Origin: a virus
Taxonomy: Duplodnaviria > Heunggongvirae > Uroviricota > Caudoviricetes
Length of the DNA: 53,273 bases
Strand: one strand, 5' to 3'
Virus record (IMG/VR): IMGVR_UViG_3300043464_002177
The notes under the pieces: generated by a model
The model's input: the letters and a program-made list of their open reading frames with translations, nothing else
Databases searched by the model: none
Told to the model about the DNA's origin: nothing
Position numbers and translations under genes: made by a program
In this document: positions 7,413 to 27,090 of the stretch, piece by piece
Layout of the letters: every line of letters starts with the position of its first letter
Numbering within the stretch: the stretch's first letter is position 1

Positions 7413-7482
7413 GGGCCGGATGTCAATGGCAGACCACCTGATTTGCAATCAGAGTGAATGGGTTCGATTCCCAACGTGTCCA
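7413..7482 (+). tRNA. trnA: tRNA-Ala(UGC), degenerate acceptor stem
   Basis: G3:U70 and A73, loop TT-TGC-AA, T arm ATGGG-TTCGATT-CCCAA; two mismatches in the acceptor stem. Confidence 0.65.
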
Positions 7483-8947: not shown

Positions 8948-9021
8948 GGATTGTTGGTGAAGTTGGTTATCATGCTACCCTGTCACGGTAGAGTTCACGG
9001 GTTCGAGTCCCGTACAGTCCG
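8948..9021 (+). tRNA. trnD: tRNA-Asp(GUC)
   Basis: Loop CT-GTC-AC; G73. Confidence 0.92.
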
Positions 9022-9029
9022 CATTTATT

Positions 9030-11736: not shown

Positions 11737-11881
11737 TGTAGTGTGACGAAATTTGGCAAACGTACCGTCCTGTCTCGGCGGTGTGGAGCATCTGATAAAC
11801 GTAGGATAATGGGTTGACCACAAAGCGCGCAATGTCCTATGGCTAAAGACCACTTGGATGGTTCGAATCCTCCCACTACAG
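11737..11881 (+). ncRNA. tRNA-like RNA with ~74-nt variable arm (GUC in anticodon position)
   Basis: TGTAGTG/CACTACA acceptor, class-II-type D arm, CCGTC/GGCGG stem with loop CTGTCTC, TTCGAAT T loop, long hairpin insertion 11782-11855. Confidence 0.7.
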
Positions 11882-11910
11882 CTAAAATAATTATATTAAA
11901 ATGAAATGAA

Positions 11911-12372
11911 ATGAAACAATTTAAAACTCTCTATGGAACTAATATTCCTGATTTGATTGGGTATGTAAGAGAATACATCTCAACAAGAGAGAACGTAGAA
12001 ATTCTCATTGGGTCTGACTCACAATGTTACGGGCATAAAAAAACTATCTATGGTGTTGTAATTGCATTATATACACCAGGGAAAGGTGCTCATGTGTTGT
12101 GTAATCGTGAAACTACCCCGATGGAATATAATACCCCATCTAGATTGTTAAATGAAGTTTGGAGATCCATTGAAATTGCTGAATGGATGAAAGAAAATGG
12201 TTTACCTAAAGCCACATGGATTGATATTGATCTTAACCCAGATCCAAAATTTAAATCAAACTCAGTTTTAAGACAAGCAGTTGGATTAGTTGAAGGTATG
12301 GGTTATAAGGTAAGGTATAAACATTTAGGAGCATTAACAACATATGCTGCAAACCATTTAGTTAGAATTTAA
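11911..12372 (+). CDS. RNase H-like YkuK/DUF458 family protein
   Basis: Motifs IGSDSQ, RLLNEVWRS, IDIDLN recalled as typical of the family. Confidence 0.7.
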   Translation: MKQFKTLYGTNIPDLIGYVREYISTRENVEILIGSDSQCYGHKKTIYGVVIALYTPGKGAHVLCNRETTPMEYNTPSRLLNEVWRSIEIAEWMKENGLPKATWIDIDLNPDPKFKSNSVLRQAVGLVEGMGYKVRYKHLGALTTYAANHLVRI

Positions 12373-12428: not shown

Positions 12429-12464
12429 TAAAAGAGTTAAGGAAATAGTTCTTTGAATTAAAAA

Positions 12465-13268
12465 TATTGGCCGCCTATGGTCGATTAAAATAAACCATGA
12501 AAGTGGGATAAAGTGAATCTGAATTAGTTGTTTGGGTTTGCGGTTTCAGCAATGGAACTTGAGTAGGCAAGCGGGATATCATTAAGCCGTAAGTACTGAG
12601 GGTGACACTGTAGGGAAAGTGGTTTGGTGACTGAGCGATACCGGTCGTTTGGTTGAGGTGGGAACACCAATAAGAATAACTCGTAGAATTGTTGTGAGAA
12701 ATATGACCTCCAATCATATTATTGCGGGATTCAATACAATGGGAATCTTAAAACCGAAAGGTATGGTTGTGTACAGGTGGTGCTGTTACAATCCTTGATT
12801 TAAATCTACCAAGGTTTTTATCTCGAAGGGGTCCAGAAGTGTGGAGGCAGGGATGTCTCAGAGGGTAGTTTAGTATCGTGTCGTCCAAAAGATGGCATGG
12901 CTGGCGGCGAGCCACTACCTTCCAGATCGGTAACTAAAATCATTTTGTTAATTCAGGTTTAACAACTTATAAACAAAAGGAAAAGTGCTCGTCAGTCATT
13001 AGAGACAGGTGACTACATAGTCGTGAGGGGTTCACGGCCACAAAGGGTCCCAAGCCCAATGTGAGTTTCCAGAAAGTTCTCTAGTCCCGCAAGGACTAAT
13101 CGGGGTGGCAACCTCGAAGAGTAATAAGTAAGGTGAGAGTATCTAATGACTTAAGGATTGGTTAATCTAATTGACCGTCACTGGTTGGTACAGTTCAAAA
13201 GACTGTGGATATGAGAGGAAACAATAATCTTTCTAAAGTCAACTACTAAAACTTGTAATCTCAGAGTT
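12465..13268 (+). ncRNA. large structured ncRNA, GOLLD-like
   Basis: ~800 nt with no credible sense ORF, GC-rich, many GNRA/CAAAA-capped hairpins, long-range pairing 12596-12632 with 13237-13264, own promoter and terminator, next to a phage tRNA array; family assignment not computed. Confidence 0.65.
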
Positions 13269-13343
13269 TTTATTTTTTTAGTTTAGAAAAACTAAATGGT
13301 GGAAGAGACCTCACAAAAATATTAACCGTGCGGCCCCGAATTG

Positions 13344-13372
13344 AGTCAGAAGAAATTCTGACTTTTTTTTTG
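13344..13372 (+). terminator. intrinsic terminator after large ncRNA
   Basis: AGTCAGAA-gaaa-TTCTGACT + long U-tract. Confidence 0.85.
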
Positions 13373-13403: not shown

Positions 13404-14150
13404 ATGAGAATCATTTGCATATCAGATACACATAGTCTTCACCCAATGATGGGTTATGATCTACCTGAAGGTGATGTTTTAATCCATTCGGGTGATTGTA
13501 CAAATAAAGGTCAACGTCAAGATGTTGAGAATTTTGTTCATTGGTTTATGGATCAAAAATATGATACAAAGATCTTTGTTGCTGGTAATCACGATTTTGC
13601 ATTTGAAGAACATAGATACCCACATCACAAAGGAGATTACGATTGGTATTATAATTTAATGGATAAAGAAACATTGTCACAATCCGATGTAGTTTATTTA
13701 GAAGATAACCAATGTATAATTGACTCACCAGAATTCTCCAGACCAATAAAGTTTTGGGGTAGTCCATGGCAACCAGAATTTTATAATTGGGCATTTAATT
13801 TACCAAGACTAGGTGAAGATCTTCAAAAGTATTGGTCAATGATTCCTGAAGATACTGATGTATTAATAACACATGGGCCGCCTCATGGATGTAGAGATTT
13901 TGTTAGTAATTGGAGACAAGGAGACATGAACGTTGGTTGTGAATTACTTGCGTTCCATGTGGAACGTGTAAAACCATTATTACATGTATTTGGTCATATT
14001 CACGGGGCATATGGAGGAATGTATAAAAATGATACATTATTTGTTAATGCTGCCATCTGTACTGAACAATATATTCCATCAAATAAACCTATCATCGTTG
14101 AATTAAAAGAATACGATGGCGAAATTGTAGCAACTTATGTCGAAGAATAA
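13404..14150 (+). CDS. calcineurin-like metallophosphoesterase
   Basis: DTH, GD, GNHD, THGPP, GHIH motifs. Confidence 0.92.
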   Translation: MRIICISDTHSLHPMMGYDLPEGDVLIHSGDCTNKGQRQDVENFVHWFMDQKYDTKIFVAGNHDFAFEEHRYPHHKGDYDWYYNLMDKETLSQSDVVYLEDNQCIIDSPEFSRPIKFWGSPWQPEFYNWAFNLPRLGEDLQKYWSMIPEDTDVLITHGPPHGCRDFVSNWRQGDMNVGCELLAFHVERVKPLLHVFGHIHGAYGGMYKNDTLFVNAAICTEQYIPSNKPIIVELKEYDGEIVATYVEE

Positions 14151-14820
14151 CGAACCAATAAGTGTTGTTATACCAACACGAAAAATTGATGATACATACT
14201 TAAAGCATGTTGAGAAAATGTTCTCTCATCCTAGAACTGAAATTTTAATTTATGAGAATGATGGTAGCGAACCATTAGCCAAAATTTATAATGATGGATT
14301 AAAAGATGCTAAGAATGATATTATTGTTTTCATGCATGATGATTTAATTCTTGAAACAAAAAATATTACACCTAAAGTCATTAGGTTATTTGATAAAAAC
14401 CCTCAATATGGTATTATTGGTTTAGCCGGTACAGATAACCTTCTTAGTGGAATGTGGTGGCAAGATAGATCATCAATGTATGGTATTGTTGGTCATGAAC
14501 ACGAAGGTAAGCGTCATGTCAATCATTACTCAAAAGGTGATTACAGTGAAAACTTAAAAGAGGTGATCGTTGTTGATGGGTTATTTATGATGATTCATAG
14601 AGAAAGATTAAAACATACTTTCAATGAACAGTTTGAAGGGTTTCATTTTTATGATCTACCAATATGTGTTGAAAATCATTTAAATAGTGTTAAAATTGGT
14701 GTGACAACCAAAATTAGAGTTACACATAAATCGGTCGGTATGGTTAATAAAAAATGGGAGAAGAATAAATTATTCTTTGAAGCATTATATGATAAGAATT
14801 TCCCTTTGAAAATCTCTTAA
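14137..14820 (+). CDS. glycosyltransferase family 2-like protein
   Basis: YNDG, VFMHDD, VDGLF, FHFYDL motifs. Confidence 0.8.
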   Translation: MSKNNEPISVVIPTRKIDDTYLKHVEKMFSHPRTEILIYENDGSEPLAKIYNDGLKDAKNDIIVFMHDDLILETKNITPKVIRLFDKNPQYGIIGLAGTDNLLSGMWWQDRSSMYGIVGHEHEGKRHVNHYSKGDYSENLKEVIVVDGLFMMIHRERLKHTFNEQFEGFHFYDLPICVENHLNSVKIGVTTKIRVTHKSVGMVNKKWEKNKLFFEALYDKNFPLKIS

Positions 14821-14855: not shown

Positions 14856-15255
14856 GGGGGTGTCTGGTATTGATTGGCGTTGATATGGTAAATGGGCACG
14901 TAGTCGGATGTCATCTACGACTTTAATCCACGGTGGTAAAATTTAAACGGCAACGTTTATAACAACATGGAAGCTTGCGGCTTGATCGCAACTTCTAACG
15001 TAGCAGTAGCCTAAGGCGAAACTATATCGGGTCGACTGGCATATAACCTAGGAACAGAAGCCTTCAAGGTGTAATACCGCCTCAGAGTGTTGGAGAATGG
15101 TCTGATTGTCTCTTTAAAATCTAGTCAGAAACAGGTTTGTTGTGTAGCTGTGTATGAAACCAACTATTTGTCAGTTGAGAACCAATTGAATAAACGTGTA
15201 GTCCATTTATGATATGGCGAGCAAGACACGGGTTCGAATCCCGTCACCTCCACCA
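14856..15255 (+). ncRNA. ssrA: tmRNA; tag (A)GNVYNNMEACGLIATSNVAVA at 14949-15014
   Basis: GGGGGTG..ATTGA 5' end, T arm GGTTCGAATCC, CACCTCC-A-CCA 3' end with G3:U70, internal tag ORF ending in hydrophobic AVA-stop. Confidence 0.93.
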
Positions 15256-21356: not shown

Positions 21357-22448
21357 CTATAAATATGTGTTAATTTCTTCTTTTACCCTTTTTAACGCTG
21401 ATGCAACAACTTGATGCATATCATAATATTTGTAATCAGCCAATCTTCCACCAAATATTACGTTTTCTTCTAAAACCATTAATTTTTTATATTCACCATA
21501 TCTAATATTATTAGCTTCATTGTTTATGGGATAATATGGCTCACCTTCTGTTCTTGGGTATTCTTCTGTTACAACTGTTTTTAATTGATCCCCGAACTCA
21601 AAGTGTTTATGTTCGATTATTCTTGTGTATTCTGTTTCTAAGTCTGTATAATTTACAACTGCATTGCCCTGAAAATCTTTAGAATTTATTGTTTTTGTTT
21701 TAAACTCTAAACTTCTATATTCTAATTTACCAAAAATAAAATCATAATATCGATCTATTGGCCCGGTATAAACCACCTTAGTTGCTTGATCATCCCAGTG
21801 TTTTCGATCTTCAAAATAATCAACATTTAATTTAACATCAATACCATCTAATAGTTTATTAAAGATTTCTGTATAACCACCTATTGGTATGCCCTGATAT
21901 TTGTCAAAAAAATAGTTGTCATCATAATTCAATCTTATTGGTAATCTTTTTATGATACTTGTTGGTAGTGATTTAGGATCACAACCCCATTGCTTAGTGG
22001 TATATCCCTTTATGAATATTTCATAAATCTCTTTTCCAACTTGTGATAATACCCAATCCTCCAAATTTCTTGGTGTTGGTATATCATATCTTACATGTTC
22101 TAAAATTAATTTAGCTTGTTCTGGTGTTGATACATTATATATTTGATATAATGTCATTAAATTTATTGGGAAAGAATAAATGTTGTTTTTATAATTTACT
22201 TTAGGTCTATTAACAAAGTGATTAAACTTAGTGTATTTGTTCATGTATTCCCAAACTCTATCATCTGATGTATGAAAAATGTGTGGACCATATTTGTGCA
22301 CATTAATACCCTCTATATTTTCCGTAAAACAATTACCGCCGATATGGTTTCTCTTATCTATTACAAGACATTTAAATCCCTTATCGGTTAATTCTCTTGC
22401 AAAAATAGAACCAAATAATCCAGAACCAACGATTAGATAGTTATACAT
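21357..22448 (-). CDS. glf: UDP-galactopyranose mutase
   Basis: GSGLFG FAD motif, HIGGNC, YGPHIFHT, KYQGIP, GRLADYKYYDM. Confidence 0.96.
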   Translation of the reverse strand: MYNYLIVGSGLFGSIFARELTDKGFKCLVIDKRNHIGGNCFTENIEGINVHKYGPHIFHTSDDRVWEYMNKYTKFNHFVNRPKVNYKNNIYSFPINLMTLYQIYNVSTPEQAKLILEHVRYDIPTPRNLEDWVLSQVGKEIYEIFIKGYTTKQWGCDPKSLPTSIIKRLPIRLNYDDNYFFDKYQGIPIGGYTEIFNKLLDGIDVKLNVDYFEDRKHWDDQATKVVYTGPIDRYYDFIFGKLEYRSLEFKTKTINSKDFQGNAVVNYTDLETEYTRIIEHKHFEFGDQLKTVVTEEYPRTEGEPYYPINNEANNIRYGEYKKLMVLEENVIFGGRLADYKYYDMHQVVASALKRVKEEINTYL

Positions 22449-23071
22449 GGTCTAGAATATACATTTGTAAAAATATTATCATAACCAATAAAGCCACCAA
22501 CATTATCACTTACACTGTCTATTTGTGAAACCATTAAAGGATATCCACCTAATTTACTGAAAGGCTGTTGTGTCATCCACGCATCGATTGGTGGATGCAC
22601 TTCTGGATCATAAGCTAACATTTTATCATACGCTCTGGATGGAATGATATAAGCATGAACACAATAACAACCATGTATGCGTAATAAATTTTCATCAATC
22701 ACATTCAATGGATTATCGAATATGTTTGCGTTAACATAGTATATATCCCAATCGTCTCTCTTAAATAAACTTTTTAAAGATTGTTCTAGTAAATTAATTG
22801 TACCTTCTTTAAAGAAAATATCATCTTCCAATATTAGAATATTATCTAAATTTTTGTCTTTAGCATATTGTATTAAATTGCGGTGTGATGTTCCACTCGC
22901 TATAACACAATTTTGTGGTGTTCTATTTTCAGCTTTAATTGCACTATATCTCTGTACAAAATCTTCTAAACCATATTTGGCTAATTCTTTATCCATGTGT
23001 TGTTTTCTATCTGGACGATCATCCAAATTTATATACCAAGCTTCGCTAACGTAATTTTTTAAAAATGTCAT
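22433..23071 (-). CDS. glycosyltransferase family 25-like
   Basis: YINLDDRPDR, SH, ILILEDD, HAYII motifs. Confidence 0.85.
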   Translation of the reverse strand: MTFLKNYVSEAWYINLDDRPDRKQHMDKELAKYGLEDFVQRYSAIKAENRTPQNCVIASGTSHRNLIQYAKDKNLDNILILEDDIFFKEGTINLLEQSLKSLFKRDDWDIYYVNANIFDNPLNVIDENLLRIHGCYCVHAYIIPSRAYDKMLAYDPEVHPPIDAWMTQQPFSKLGGYPLMVSQIDSVSDNVGGFIGYDNIFTNVYSRPCITI

Positions 23072-23114
23072 ATTTTATTTATTTTGTTTTAATTATTATA
23101 CTTGCCTCAAACTA

Positions 23115-24344
23115 TTATATCTTAAAATATGATGGTGTTTTCCATTCAAGATCATTTGAAAACGGCCATACTAATAATTGTGTTGGTATTTGTCTATTTT
23201 TAGATCTATCAAATTTAAAATTTCTTGATGTAATTTTTCCGTCGATAATATCTTTATTTTCGGTATAAACAATATCTTCTCTATGTATTGCAACACCATT
23301 TTGATCTAGAACAATCATGGCCCAAAATCTAACATTATCCACTTTTTCTATTTTTTCAAAATCCCAAGATAATTTATCATTAAAGGTCACTTGTTCATTG
23401 TCCCAACCTTCTTCAGAGTTTGAACACGGTGGTTCAATACCTTTTTCAGCATCTTTGTGTACCAAATATTTTACAAAATCAACACCCGAATAGTTTGTGT
23501 AATCTTCTAATGTTCTTTTTGTTCCCAAACCATAAATCCCCAACTCATAATTTTTATTTCTACCAAGCAAACAATCTAATCTATCGTGTGCAACTCTATT
23601 GTATGTTGACCAATTCTTATCATCATCCCAATGTTTTGAATTACCTAATCTCTGATAGAAATGATAAACGATAACTCTGTGTGAATTGTAAATGTTGTAA
23701 CCATGTGTATAGTATCTTACAGCCATTGCAGTTTCTTCTCCAGAAAAATAAAAATCAGGATCATAAGGAACTGTTTGATTAATTTCACCTGGTCCAAATA
23801 TAAAACCAGCTGAAATATGTATACCCCTAGGTGGTTTTGTTTTTAATTCCCAACCATCCATATTTGCTGGGCGATTTAAAGGATATCTATGATCAAATCT
23901 ATAAACATTACATATCTGTGGGACATTGTACCAAGTACTTTCTGAACTTTCCGGATTAAAATTAGGTGGATATCCAGTTATAATTGCATTTTCATCATCT
24001 AAAGATTCCCAAATATTAATTAGGGTTTCGTCCCAGTTTTCAATAAACCTCATATGAGAATCTAATTGAAGTGAAAACTTTTCACCATTCCATTGTTTCT
24101 GTGTAACATTACGAGCCCAACAAGCGCCCTTAGATTCCGTGTAATTATAATCTAATATTTTAAATCTGGGGTCATCTTTAAATTCATCTAAAGTATCCCA
24201 TACGTCATCCGGATTGTGTTGCCAACATATTGTAAAAACCAGATTTTCTGGATGTTTAGCTCTTTCAATACAATGTCTTAATGTTGGTAAAAGTTGAGCA
24301 TCTCGATATGATGCTATTTGTACAAAAATTTTATTATTGTCCAT
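23115..24344 (-). CDS. GlcNAc transferase ([Skp1]-hydroxyproline GlcNAc-T / GT60-like)
   Basis: IFVQIASYRD, GACWAR, LQLDSHMRF, FSGEE, VYHFY; start moved to MDNNK at 24344. Confidence 0.85.
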   Translation of the reverse strand: MDNNKIFVQIASYRDAQLLPTLRHCIERAKHPENLVFTICWQHNPDDVWDTLDEFKDDPRFKILDYNYTESKGACWARNVTQKQWNGEKFSLQLDSHMRFIENWDETLINIWESLDDENAIITGYPPNFNPESSESTWYNVPQICNVYRFDHRYPLNRPANMDGWELKTKPPRGIHISAGFIFGPGEINQTVPYDPDFYFSGEETAMAVRYYTHGYNIYNSHRVIVYHFYQRLGNSKHWDDDKNWSTYNRVAHDRLDCLLGRNKNYELGIYGLGTKRTLEDYTNYSGVDFVKYLVHKDAEKGIEPPCSNSEEGWDNEQVTFNDKLSWDFEKIEKVDNVRFWAMIVLDQNGVAIHREDIVYTENKDIIDGKITSRNFKFDRSKNRQIPTQLLVWPFSNDLEWKTPSYFKI

Positions 24345-24457
24345 ATTAGTATTTGTTAGAATAATTATACACAAAAAATATATCAAAACGAACCCTAAAA
24401 TCGATTTTTTATTTTGAAAAATTATTCTTATATTAGATCTTATAAACGACTTAATAC

Positions 24458-24844
24458 ATGGCTTACTTACCAAAAATAGAAAACATAGCAAATGAAATTA
24501 TTCAAACATTAATTGAAGATAAATTCTTTGAAGACTTTGAAATAGAAGACTATAGCTATACAAAAAAAAGATTTTGTGAGGAACTAACAACCAAGTTTTT
24601 ACTTAACGGTTTAGAAAACGAAGATATTGGTATTTTTAATGAAGATGAGTTTGATAAAATATTAAAAGAAATTGTTGCTGAGGATATGTTAAGAAGCTTA
24701 CAAAAAACTGGGCTTATAAATTCTTACGAAGATGATAATACCGAAGAAGTCTTTTTTTTAACTGAAAAAGGTCGTGAAGAAATGCAAAAAAAATTAGATG
24801 ATGAAAATGATATTTTGAATATTTTTGTTGATGATGATGTCTAA
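24458..24844 (+). CDS. acidic hypothetical protein
   Basis: ORF track. Confidence 0.7.
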   Translation: MAYLPKIENIANEIIQTLIEDKFFEDFEIEDYSYTKKRFCEELTTKFLLNGLENEDIGIFNEDEFDKILKEIVAEDMLRSLQKTGLINSYEDDNTEEVFFLTEKGREEMQKKLDDENDILNIFVDDDV

Positions 24845-25599
24845 TCTAATTCAAAGGTATCCTTAAATTTCTTTCCAGATTTTTTGTATGAAGCGGCTGT
24901 CTCGTCTTTAGGATTTTTAGTGTATTGCCAATTCCAACATAATTCATCTTTAACATCAAATCCAAAAAATGATAATACTTGTTTTTGTATGTTAATAGTA
25001 TTTTCACCATTCCAGTTTTGCCCCGTAGCAATGATACCACAAGATACATCTTTTAATATATTTGATTCACCCAATGTGCTATGTCTATTTTCCAACCAAG
25101 TTAATCTTTCAATTAAGTTTTGATATTGAGCATTCATTTGACCCCATCTAATAGAACCAAAAAAGACAACAGCATCTGACTCGAATAATTCCTTACTAAT
25201 TTTCCATAATTCATCATCAGGGTTGTTGATACTTCTCCAACATCTGTGATTACCGCTTGGGTTTTTATCTTTATCTTTTAAAGCTGATTTTTTTACACCA
25301 CACGAATTACCTTCCATATGTGAGACATTACCTTCACAATGGTGTATTTGTAAATTGATCGTTTCGAAAAGTGTACATTTTGATTTACCAAGATGAGATT
25401 GTATTGCTTTAGCTAACATAGTAGATTTCGGCTCCTCTTTTAATTCCTTCATAGCCCACTCACCTCTATTAGAGGTTGTTATGAACAACACTTTTTTCTT
25501 ACCTTCAAGAAACTCAATAGTTTCAATAAGTCTCTTATAATGTGGATCATTTTTCTTAAGTGTTGGATCAATTTCTTCTATAAGCTTTATAAGTTTCAT
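24841..25599 (-). CDS. flavodoxin-like / NAD(P)H-dependent FMN reductase family protein
   Basis: TTSNR..S, Cys-rich HCEG..C..C, SDAVVFFGSIRWG, GQNWNG. Confidence 0.8.
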   Translation of the reverse strand: MKLIKLIEEIDPTLKKNDPHYKRLIETIEFLEGKKKVLFITTSNRGEWAMKELKEEPKSTMLAKAIQSHLGKSKCTLFETINLQIHHCEGNVSHMEGNSCGVKKSALKDKDKNPSGNHRCWRSINNPDDELWKISKELFESDAVVFFGSIRWGQMNAQYQNLIERLTWLENRHSTLGESNILKDVSCGIIATGQNWNGENTINIQKQVLSFFGFDVKDELCWNWQYTKNPKDETAASYKKSGKKFKDTFELD

Positions 25600-25928
25600 T
25601 ACTTCTTTTTTTCTTCTATTTGTTGGTTATATAGAGTCTTTTTATATAGTTTTATTTTATCTTTTAACTGTGTGATTAATTTTTGCGCCGAACTTAAATT
25701 TTGAGAAATACCATTTATTCTCCCTGCTGCCACAGTTTTTAATCCACCTGGAACTGAGTCTTGCAATTTTCTTAATTCTTTTACCGTTTCATTTAATGAA
25801 TTTTGTAATTCATCTATTTTAAATTGAACTCTAGCAAACTCATCTCTCTTTACCTTGGACACCTCTTCGTTTATAATTCGATTGAGGATCGTTTTAATGT
25901 TATCTTCGAAAATTATCTTCTTTTCCAT
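25599..25928 (-). CDS. coiled-coil hypothetical late protein
   Basis: ILNRIINEE N-terminal motif. Confidence 0.75.
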   Translation of the reverse strand: MEKKIIFEDNIKTILNRIINEEVSKVKRDEFARVQFKIDELQNSLNETVKELRKLQDSVPGGLKTVAAGRINGISQNLSSAQKLITQLKDKIKLYKKTLYNQQIEEKKK

Positions 25929-26010
25929 AATAATATAAATACTTTTTTTATTGATAATTTTTTATTCTACCCGTTTTTTCCTATATTAGATCTACCAAAA
26001 TGATTTAGAA

Positions 26011-27090
26011 ATGAACAACACCCCAGAACAATTGTACGATTTTGATGATTTTCTTATTGAACCAGCAACTTTCACTACAATAAGTAGTAGAAGTGAGATT
26101 AATATTACGAAAACATTTAATACATCAAATGTACTTCCAATAATGACAGCACCAATGGATACTGTTGTAAGTCAAGATAATTTTCATTTATTTAAAAATC
26201 AAGGTATTATTCCAGTTTTACCCAGAATTAGTGATCCAAATAAAGAATGGGTTGATTATTCATACTTCCTATCTTATAGTCTACAAGACTTCGAAAGATT
26301 ATTTTTGAGGGAAAAAGTCTCTGTTCCGGATGGTGATTGTATATACGCATTAATTGATGTTGCCAATGGACACATGCTTAATCTTTTTGAGGCGGCTAAA
26401 AAAGCCAAAATAATGTATAGTGAGCAAATGTGCTTGATGGTTGGTAATGTTGCTAATCCTGCGACATTTCACAAATACTGTGAAATAGGTGTTGATATGG
26501 TTAGGATCGGTATTGGTAACGGCGGAGGATGTCTAACAACAGTTCAAACTGGGGTTGGGTACCCTATGGCATCATTAATAAAAGAATGTAGTGATATACA
26601 GAAAAAGAAATATTATTTAGGTAATTGTAGACCATACGAAACGAAAATAATCGCAGATGGTGGTTTTAAGAAATACTCAGACATCATCAAGGCTTTAGCC
26701 CTGGGTGCTGACTATGTTATGTTGGGGTCCATTTTAAACAAATGTTTGGAAAGCGCTGGTGAAACAAGTAGGGAGAATTATGAAGTAATAAGTCAATATA
26801 CTAAACACGCTAATGAAATGTTCATGGCTGATGTGCCGCTTTATAAAAACTTTAGGGGTATGAGTACCAAAGAAGTTCAGAAATCCTGGGGTAAAGAAGT
26901 ATTAACAACATCTGAAGGTGTTGTTAGAAGAAATAAGGTAGAATATACAATTGAAGGGTGGGTTAAGAATTTTGAAGATTATCTTAAGTCCGCTATGAGT
27001 TACTCAGGAAAAAAAGAGCTCCACCAGTTTATTGGAGGAGCACAGATGAATCTTATTTCTAGAAACGCTTTTAAAAGATTTGATAAATAA
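26011..27090 (+). CDS. IMP dehydrogenase / GMP reductase family protein
   Basis: APMDTV, DVANGH, GNVA, RIGIGNGGGCLTT, IIADGG, GADYVMLG, FRGMST, SAMSYSG. Confidence 0.88.
   Translation: MNNTPEQLYDFDDFLIEPATFTTISSRSEINITKTFNTSNVLPIMTAPMDTVVSQDNFHLFKNQGIIPVLPRISDPNKEWVDYSYFLSYSLQDFERLFLREKVSVPDGDCIYALIDVANGHMLNLFEAAKKAKIMYSEQMCLMVGNVANPATFHKYCEIGVDMVRIGIGNGGGCLTTVQTGVGYPMASLIKECSDIQKKKYYLGNCRPYETKIIADGGFKKYSDIIKALALGADYVMLGSILNKCLESAGETSRENYEVISQYTKHANEMFMADVPLYKNFRGMSTKEVQKSWGKEVLTTSEGVVRRNKVEYTIEGWVKNFEDYLKSAMSYSGKKELHQFIGGAQMNLISRNAFKRFDK

Follow-up and report, generated by a model that had tools for sequence, protein, structure and literature searches.

An undescribed family of tRNA-like RNAs with a large conserved variable arm in Bacteroidota chromosomes and the phages of these bacteria

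Several RNAs have a tRNA shape, or are charged, outside normal decoding, including the staphylococcal cell-wall tRNA-Gly, the tRNA-like domain of tmRNA and YrlA. In addition, the tRNA cluster of phage T4 includes at its end two stable RNAs of unknown role, species 1 and species 2. To our knowledge, none of these RNAs has a giant conserved variable arm or the invariant nucleotides described here. In this study, a tRNA-like RNA gene of 145 nt was analysed in the 53,273-nt record IMGVR_UViG_3300043464_002177 of a Caudoviricetes phage (the whole stretch is referred to as the window). The element at 11737-11881 of the window was confirmed to be a real and complete cloverleaf gene belonging to a conserved family, which is represented by over 150 phage contigs in IMG/VR and over 80 chromosomal loci of Bacteroidota. 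The frame of the element was closest to class II tRNA-Leu and its recognition marks closest to tRNA-Asp and tRNA-Asn. Like the element, class II tRNA-Leu (RF00005) has a 7/5 acceptor/T branch and a D stem of 3 bp whose long loop contains GG, and it carries an additional arm between its anticodon and T arms. However, the arm of class II tRNAs has 11-24 nt, whereas that of the element has 74 nt with internal loops and a mini-hairpin; moreover, tRNA-Leu carries A73, whereas the element carries G73 together with GUC, a pyrimidine at position 37 and a variable position 33. The likeness to tRNA-Asp and tRNA-Asn, the latter formed by the aspartyl-tRNA synthetase (AspRS) and GatCAB route, lies in GUC, C38, G73, G2-C71 and U1-A72, but unlike tRNA-Asp the element lacks G10 and does not appear to be a decoder. 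Allo-tRNAs also combine a long variable arm with G73; they have 8/4 or 9/3 branches and diverse anticodons, among which GUC is frequent, and they have not been reported from Bacteroidota (PMC5389517). In contrast, the branch of the element is 7/5, as supported by covariation, and its GUC is fixed.

The family was delimited by sequence searches and covariance models. A search with the exact T arm and acceptor end returned five IMG/VR contigs, whose copies showed compensatory differences in the stems of the D and anticodon arms, and a looser sequence pattern returned at least 80 loci. The alignment of 54 unique full-length copies contained 60 invariant columns; across the cloverleaf and two insert helices, 98.8% of the cells were paired and double changes were present in 21 of the 33 pairs. 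When the partners were slid as a control, pairing fell to 44-62% (approximately 50%), and none of 500 shuffles reached any of the covariation measures. A second sample was drawn with a pattern lacking the anticodon loop, for phage contigs and for bacterial contigs taken as one genome per species. It provided 77 further phage matches and 84 bacterial matches of at least 75 bits, whereas ordinary tRNAs did not exceed 43 bits. All of the bacterial matches were in Bacteroidota, and the carriers included many species of Dyadobacter as well as Aquirufa, Arcicella, Niastella, Haliscomenobacter and metagenome-assembled genomes (MAGs) of Saprospiraceae, Chitinophagaceae and Cytophagaceae. The bacterial copies alone were 96.8% paired, again with double changes in 21 of the 33 pairs. 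Moreover, a covariance model of 154 positions, which was built from 81 bacterial copies and contained no phage sequences, matched exactly the element in the window over model positions 1-154 (118.8 bits, E 8e-34), and the next-best scores of the family model in the window were those of two tRNA-Leu genes (47 and 42 bits) and a tRNA-Asp gene (41 bits). The nearest copies were found in another phage contig (L033, 93% identity) and in Aquirufa and Cytophagaceae chromosomes (79%). These data place the conservation of the element far beyond chance. The initial annotation, made from the letters of the window, had named a lack of conservation as a ground for refutation and a covariance model from homologs as one check; this ground clearly fell away, as the RNA is conserved, with compensatory substitutions, at hundreds of loci in phages and bacteria.

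The family is undescribed, and the phage copy belongs to a family of Bacteroidota chromosomes and their phages. No description was found in the literature on tRNA-like RNAs, long variable arms, Bacteroidetes, asnC and GOLLD. ARAGORN made no call at the element, and Rfam 15, a further check that had been proposed, returned nothing there, RF00005 included, at gathering thresholds or at E<=10. The Rfam models of tmRNA and related RNAs likewise gave no match at the element, and the tmRNA of this phage is a separate gene. A blastn search of 50,697 records of isolate phages with the element returned no match, and the Pfam matches of the large ORFs gave no indication of the host. In single-sequence folding, the minimum-energy structure was not the cloverleaf and its z score of -1.08 was unremarkable; because the fold energy of a single sequence is uninformative here, the case for the element rests on conservation.

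A census of the anticodon loop was made in samples that had not been chosen by loop sequence (77 bacterial and about 68 phage copies). G34-U35-C36 was found in 100% of the copies, position 37 was U or C in about 99% and position 38 was C in about 93%, and U occupied position 33 in 94% of the bacterial copies vs only about 45% of the phage copies, with C, A or G in the remainder. The family loop thus has 7 nt of the form NN-GUC-Y-C on a 5-bp stem, to which the window element conforms; the 5-bp stem, the loop CUGUCUC and the pyrimidine at 37 had already been noticed in the initial annotation. Working tRNAs have a purine at position 37 and need U33 for the anticodon turn. Codon reading by these RNAs therefore seems unlikely, given the pyrimidine at 37 and the loss of U33 from roughly half of the phage copies. 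Furthermore, a fixed GUC in a loop without the U-turn and the purine platform suggests that the loop is recognised by a protein rather than by a codon. The queuine-insertion enzyme (TGT) is an unlikely reader of the loop, as its UGU site includes U33, which the phage copies do not conserve.

At the other end of the molecule, U1-A72, G2-C71 and G73 were fixed in 205 of 210 unique copies. C74 was encoded in 99-100% of the copies and the full CCA in 11-12%; the window element does not encode the full CCA and has CUA at this place. An invariant acceptor end with an encoded C74 indicates that the 3' end is under selection too. In Escherichia coli, the aspartate identity set by which AspRS recognises its tRNA consists of G34, U35, C36, C38, G73, G2-C71 and G10, and U1-A72 is the mark by which bacterial GatCAB picks tRNA-Asn. 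Six of the seven aspartate identity nucleotides are present and conserved in the family; G10 is absent, and the window element has A10.

The insert that replaces the ordinary variable arm is a conserved domain in its own right (Table 1). The initial annotation had proposed three pairings within it, of which GUGG/CCAC and GUAGGAU/GUCCUAU covary, while AGC/GCU was paired in 40.7% of cases, the same as in the slid controls, and did not hold. Helix V2 showed double changes in seven of its nine pairs in the main alignment and in all nine pairs among the bacterial copies. The best conserved motif of the arm was the mini-hairpin, with the family form N-GGG-UNGA-CC(A)C-N', whose closing pair alternates between G-C, U-A and A-U and is Watson-Crick in 172 of 197 copies. 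From its sequence conservation, this mini-hairpin looks like a candidate docking or protein-binding site. In engineered aptamer-tagged tRNAs, the tip of the variable arm serves as a protein-binding handle, with small hairpins being tolerated and large inserts leaving marginal activity (PMC7590224); by analogy, such results would fit a non-translational role for an arm of 74 nt. The arm reaches about 130 nt in bacterial copies. Short bacterial variants of 109-121 nt were also seen next to full-length copies (L207:42-150, L207:358-466, L174:3384-3504 and L238:6171-6286); in these variants the cloverleaf, the GUCUC loop and the arm's internal loop are kept, but the GGG-UNGA-CC(A)C mini-hairpin is missing.

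The D stem covaries in the family alignment (ACG/CGU, UUG/CAA and GUG/CAC), and the D arm of the element is closest to the D arm of tRNA-Leu, including the tRNA-Leu of the phage itself. The Leu/Ser-type D arm that had been annotated was thus recovered as a class II arm, and the perfect acceptor stem with G73 was read as claimed. U8 and G9 are present in the window element. The T arm had been described as having a normal loop, which is correct for UUCGAAU, but the stem is irregular in that U11859 is bulged. The T stem covaries around this bulge (GGA/UCC, GAG/CUC, AAG/CUU and GCA/UGC), and a bulged T-stem U with covarying neighbours was present in 26% of the phage copies and 15% of the bacterial copies. 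An extra D-loop hairpin was found in half of the phage copies and 1% of the bacterial copies; the window copy is without it.

Table 1. Features of the tRNA-like RNA gene and their positions in the window
Feature	Position	Strand	Description
Whole tRNA-like RNA gene	11737-11881	+	145 nt, U1 to G73; ends matched exactly by the bacterial-only covariance model
Acceptor stem, 5' strand (UGUAGUG)	11737-11743	+	7/7 pairs formed with 11874-11880; double changes in 5/7 pairs in the family
Class II D arm	11746-11763	+	3-bp stem 11746-11748/11761-11763; 12-nt loop with GG
Anticodon-like arm	11765-11781	+	Stem 11765-11769/11777-11781, 5 bp including one G-U pair
Anticodon loop (CUGUCUC)	11770-11776	+	GUC at 11772-11774; U37 at 11775; U33 in the window copy
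Insert in place of the variable arm	11782-11855	+	74 nt
Variable-arm domain	11783-11853	+	V1, internal loop, V2 and mini-hairpin
Basal helix V1	11783-11786/11850-11853	+	4 bp; double changes in 3/4 pairs
Conserved internal loop of the arm	between V1 and V2	+	...GAUAAAC on the 5' side; GCUAAAG on the 3' side
Helix V2	11800-11808/11833-11841	+	9 bp; an invariant U-G pair and an A-U pair close the helix
Mini-hairpin U-GGG-UUGA-CC(A)C-A	11810-11822	+	Atop V2; bulged A; 97.7% paired
Perfect palindrome GCGCGC	11825-11830	+	A's on both flanks; too short for a hairpin
T arm	11856-11873	+	GGA-(U11859 bulge)-GG, loop UUCGAAU, CCUCC
Acceptor 3' strand (CACUACA), G73 and C74	11874-11882	+	G73 at 11881; C74 at 11882, encoded

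A further feature of the arm separated phage copies from bacterial copies. A perfect GC-rich palindrome of at least 6 nt (6-12 nt) stood right after the mini-hairpin in 95% of the phage copies, with a mean length of 8.8 nt vs 4.0 nt in shuffled sequences, whereas it was present in only 15% of the bacterial copies (mean 3.0 nt vs 3.6 nt shuffled). More than 25 distinct palindromic sequences were found among the phage copies, for example GCGCGC, GCAUGC, GCCGGCCGGC and GCUUGCAAGC. The 6-nt palindromes cannot fold into a hairpin, and in the 10-nt cases the would-be loop is itself self-complementary. Pairing between two RNA molecules through the palindrome is suggested as the simplest common reading, because the 6-nt forms cannot make hairpins and the sequences are too varied to be the DNA site of one protein. 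The dimerisation site of HIV-1 is a self-complementary kissing loop, and the phage elements resemble it in having a GC-rich palindrome of 6-10 nt in a loop flanked by A's, a likeness from which dimers may be proposed on sequence alone. One contig of 3.6 kb in a Bacteroidetes MAG (L176) carried the phage-type D-loop hairpin, the palindrome GCUUGCAAGC and the end of a tRNA a short way upstream. This contig probably derives from a phage and was binned into the MAG, and the same may apply to some of the "bacterial" palindromes (15%).

The genomic surroundings also differed between phages and bacteria. Of the 25 tRNA genes of the window, tRNA-Ser(GCU) is the last, and the element begins 4 nt after it; the same array contains a regular tRNA-Asp(GUC) at 8948-9022, as had been stated in the initial annotation. 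Among the phage copies, tRNAs were found within 3 kb on the same strand in 77%, and 45 of 150 abutted a tRNA, mostly tRNA-Ser. The bacterial copies stand alone, with only 4% near tRNAs. At 44 bacterial loci in Cytophagales and Chitinophagales, tblastn found a divergent regulator of the Lrp/AsnC family 130-330 bp from the element, and the protein identity among these loci falls to 50%. The same kind of search found no Lrp/AsnC regulator in the phage loci or in the window, and the Saprospiraceae copies were without this neighbour. Tandem arrangements of two or three copies, without an AsnC-type neighbour, were also observed in chromosomes of Saprospiraceae and some other Bacteroidota (L198:6974-7744, L165:3758-4451, L246:3514-4080 and L174:3384-3941), and one copy (L246:3706-3848) had its 5' half, to just past the anticodon arm, fused to unrelated sequence.

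From the fold, the conservation pattern and the context observed here, we infer processing, charging, a partner for the arm and a dimer in phages. The element would be made on the same transcript as the array tRNAs, and the tRNA-processing enzymes of the host would cut it out through RNase P, 3' trimming and CCA addition. Host AspRS would then load aspartate by means of GUC, C38, G73 and G2-C71; loading of aspartate by the host enzyme appears most likely because the invariant nucleotides constitute the AspRS recognition set. The loaded RNA would act off the ribosome, where a partner would bind it by its large arm. In bacteria, the gene would be controlled by the adjoining amino-acid-sensing Lrp/AsnC regulator, and the phage would have taken the RNA without the regulator and would express it with its tRNAs, free of AsnC-type control. 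The self-complementary tip of the phage copies, GCGCGC in the window, would let two molecules pair. Taken jointly, tRNA-like processing, charging by host AspRS, use off the ribosome with the arm as a handle and self-pairing in phages are given a probability of about 0.5.

Several points weigh against this joint proposal. G10, an aspartate identity element of E. coli, is absent from the family. The long variable arm together with G73 and G2-C71 may attract seryl-tRNA synthetase (SerRS), and the fixed GUC could be read by a protein other than AspRS. The palindrome could act at the level of DNA, or could form a small hairpin in the 10-nt cases. The RNA evidence is thin: the metatranscriptome contigs over the element, considered below, represent at most an unprocessed transcript and are at most a hint. 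Moreover, no gene for GatB, an asparagine synthase or a class IIb synthetase was found in three complete element-bearing phage genomes of about 320 kb, which give no phage-side pointer to the pathway; any charging therefore depends on the host.

The alternative with most in its favour, although improbable, is that the RNA is an uncharged tRNA mimic, whose shape and GUC loop serve only to bind and titrate a protein, while a second partner is bound by the arm. Candidate targets include AspRS, an enzyme that modifies tRNAs, a sensor of starvation and a host anticodon nuclease for GUN tRNAs, in which case the phage would use its copy as a decoy or to regulate the physiology of its host. A mimic would accord with the relaxed decoding features of the loop beside the fixed GUC, with a strictly conserved mini-hairpin that resembles a binding site and with phage copies that lack the AsnC regulator of the host; engineered tRNAs with an aptamer-tipped variable arm can be sequestered by their cognate proteins (PMC7590224). 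However, the invariant G73, U1-A72 and G2-C71 and the encoded C74 are as expected where enzymes use the 3' end, and a decoy acting purely through the anticodon loop would not require them. In addition, the amino-acid-responsive regulator next to the chromosomal copies suggests a metabolic rather than a defensive role. The earlier suggestion of a decoy or scaffold for tRNases, a synthetase or the ribosome was thus partly upheld: a non-decoding look-alike agrees with the invariant GUC and acceptor end, the pyrimidine at 37 and the unconserved U33, but the sequence cannot decide among the three targets.

A more elaborate form of the charging proposal, which we consider improbable, would bring in GatCAB. 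AspRS would load the carrier and GatCAB, guided by U1-A72, would convert aspartate to asparagine on the RNA, with the arm handing the product to an enzyme or barring EF-Tu. Phages would have captured this carrier and freed it from AsnC, and through its self-complementary tip it would act as a dimer and, possibly together with the neighbouring GOLLD cage, would reprogramme the amino-acid supply of the host during infection. The predictions of this scheme were examined in 151 Bacteroidota genomes drawn evenly from the phylum, in which 14 genomes with an RNA of at least 88 bits were counted as carriers. GatB was present in all 14 carriers and in 112 of the 137 non-carriers, and it was also present in 19 of 19 element-bearing genomes checked. 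Since GatB is also widespread in the sample as a whole (126 of 151 genomes), a specific tie to GatCAB was not supported and the data are only compatible with one. AsnA was found in four of the 151 genomes and in none of the carriers, and an AsnB-family gene, with paralogues counted, was found in 12 of the 14 carriers vs 87 of the 151 genomes overall. The idea that the RNA stands in for an absent asparagine synthase was therefore set aside, as AsnB is present in most carriers.

Charging with serine or another amino acid in the manner of allo-tRNAs is also unlikely. The long variable arm, G73 and G2-C71 are all present in the element, and GUC is a predominant anticodon of allo-tRNAs, which have a long variable arm and G73 and are presumed serine acceptors (PMC5389517). 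However, SerRS ignores the anticodon, which would leave a GUC in 100% of copies of a non-decoding RNA unexplained; the acceptor/T branch is 7/5 and not 8/4 or 9/3, and an arm base of 4 bp followed by a large internal loop is unlike the arms of tRNA-Ser.

A working decoder of aspartate codons, such as a tRNA-Asp resistant to host anticodon nucleases, is highly improbable, although the determinants of the L shape are complete (U8, GG in the D loop and the T loop UUCGAAU), GUC lies in a 7-nt loop and the window copy has U33. Small hairpin inserts in the variable arm can be tolerated in translation, but large ones gave only marginal tRNA activity (PMC7590224). Several observations argue against decoding: position 37 is a pyrimidine in about 99% of the copies, roughly every second phage copy has C, A or G at position 33, the array already contains a regular tRNA-Asp(GUC), and the bacterial copies occur as single genes under a dedicated regulator. 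Finally, the idea that an intron or mobile insertion is excised to leave an ordinary tRNA is barely credible. An intron-like insertion had also been raised in the initial annotation, and the insert is indeed one self-folding block between the anticodon and T arms. However, its sequence and structure, including invariant motifs and covarying helices of its own, are kept in bacteria and phages alike, its 74 nt are far below self-splicing size and have no Rfam intron match, the class II D arm suits a long variable arm, excision would leave U37, and RNA contigs run collinear with the DNA across 11855/11856, with no splice joint seen (weak evidence at a depth of 2-5).

The RNA data were taken from assembled contigs of four lake or river metatranscriptomes, and standard libraries of this kind capture structured RNAs of tRNA size poorly. 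The phage DNA itself was present in lake metagenomes from many studies. The element was covered at a depth of 2-5, and the contigs 11785-11959 and 11801-12006 continue into the next open reading frame (ORF). A promoter and terminator scan found nothing specific at the element, and no terminator was found from the element to a terminator-like hairpin at 13343-13364, which follows the GOLLD RNA. In the GOLLD region, 12462-13331, the depth ranged from hundreds to about 30,000 and greatly exceeded that of the surroundings, and 13506-14550 was empty. Many variant letters were observed over GOLLD, indicating that several related GOLLD RNAs were pooled there.

Two neighbours downstream of the element recur in other phages. 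An RNase H-like ORF of 153 aa (PF04308, E 1.3e-15; 11911-12372, + strand) directly follows the element, and 18 other phage loci have a homologue of it on the same strand, no more than 300 nt downstream of the element. The GOLLD RNA (region 12450-13331, + strand; Rfam match 12861-13267, 321.6 bits) lies 569 nt downstream of the element, and a same-strand GOLLD was present within the few kb fetched around the element at 19 of the 142 phage loci, a count that includes the window. Both associations may merely reflect related phages. GOLLD forms RNA-only cages of 14 chains, held partly by kissing loops, and occurs near phage tRNA islands (PMC12286853); its proximity is the only link to the element that was seen. 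A phage tmRNA was also identified 1.5 kb downstream of GOLLD (14856-15255, + strand; Rfam 91.2 bits), with the tag peptide GNVYNNMEACGLIATSNVAVA predicted by ARAGORN, and metatranscriptome contigs cover its part 14898-15071. Within the tRNA array, a tRNA-Ala(UGC) at 7413-7482 (+ strand) with the loop UUUGCAA was called by Rfam only, at 30.1 bits just over the threshold, and was missed by ARAGORN; it completes the set for 20 amino acids in the phage arrays. Further downstream, auxiliary metabolic genes were found at 21357-27090, namely those for a UDP-galactopyranose mutase (PF03275), a GlcNAc-type glycosyltransferase (PF11397) and a member of the IMPDH/GMP-reductase family (PF00478).

In conclusion, the "tRNA arrays" annotated in phages contain genes that are not tRNA genes. 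If the proposed reading is true, a whole family of tRNA-shaped RNAs has been overlooked, since tRNA finders and Rfam miss it, and this family would be common among Bacteroidota of soil and freshwater and would occur in many of the large phages of these bacteria. The RNA would represent a natural tRNA body fused through its variable arm to a large functional domain, in which the recognition marks for a synthetase were retained and the features needed at the ribosome were dropped. Such an RNA would open up roles of charged tRNA-like molecules outside translation, and of non-decoding genes within phage tRNA arrays. Furthermore, it would bear on whether small phage RNAs pair through self-complementary loops beside cage-forming RNAs such as GOLLD.

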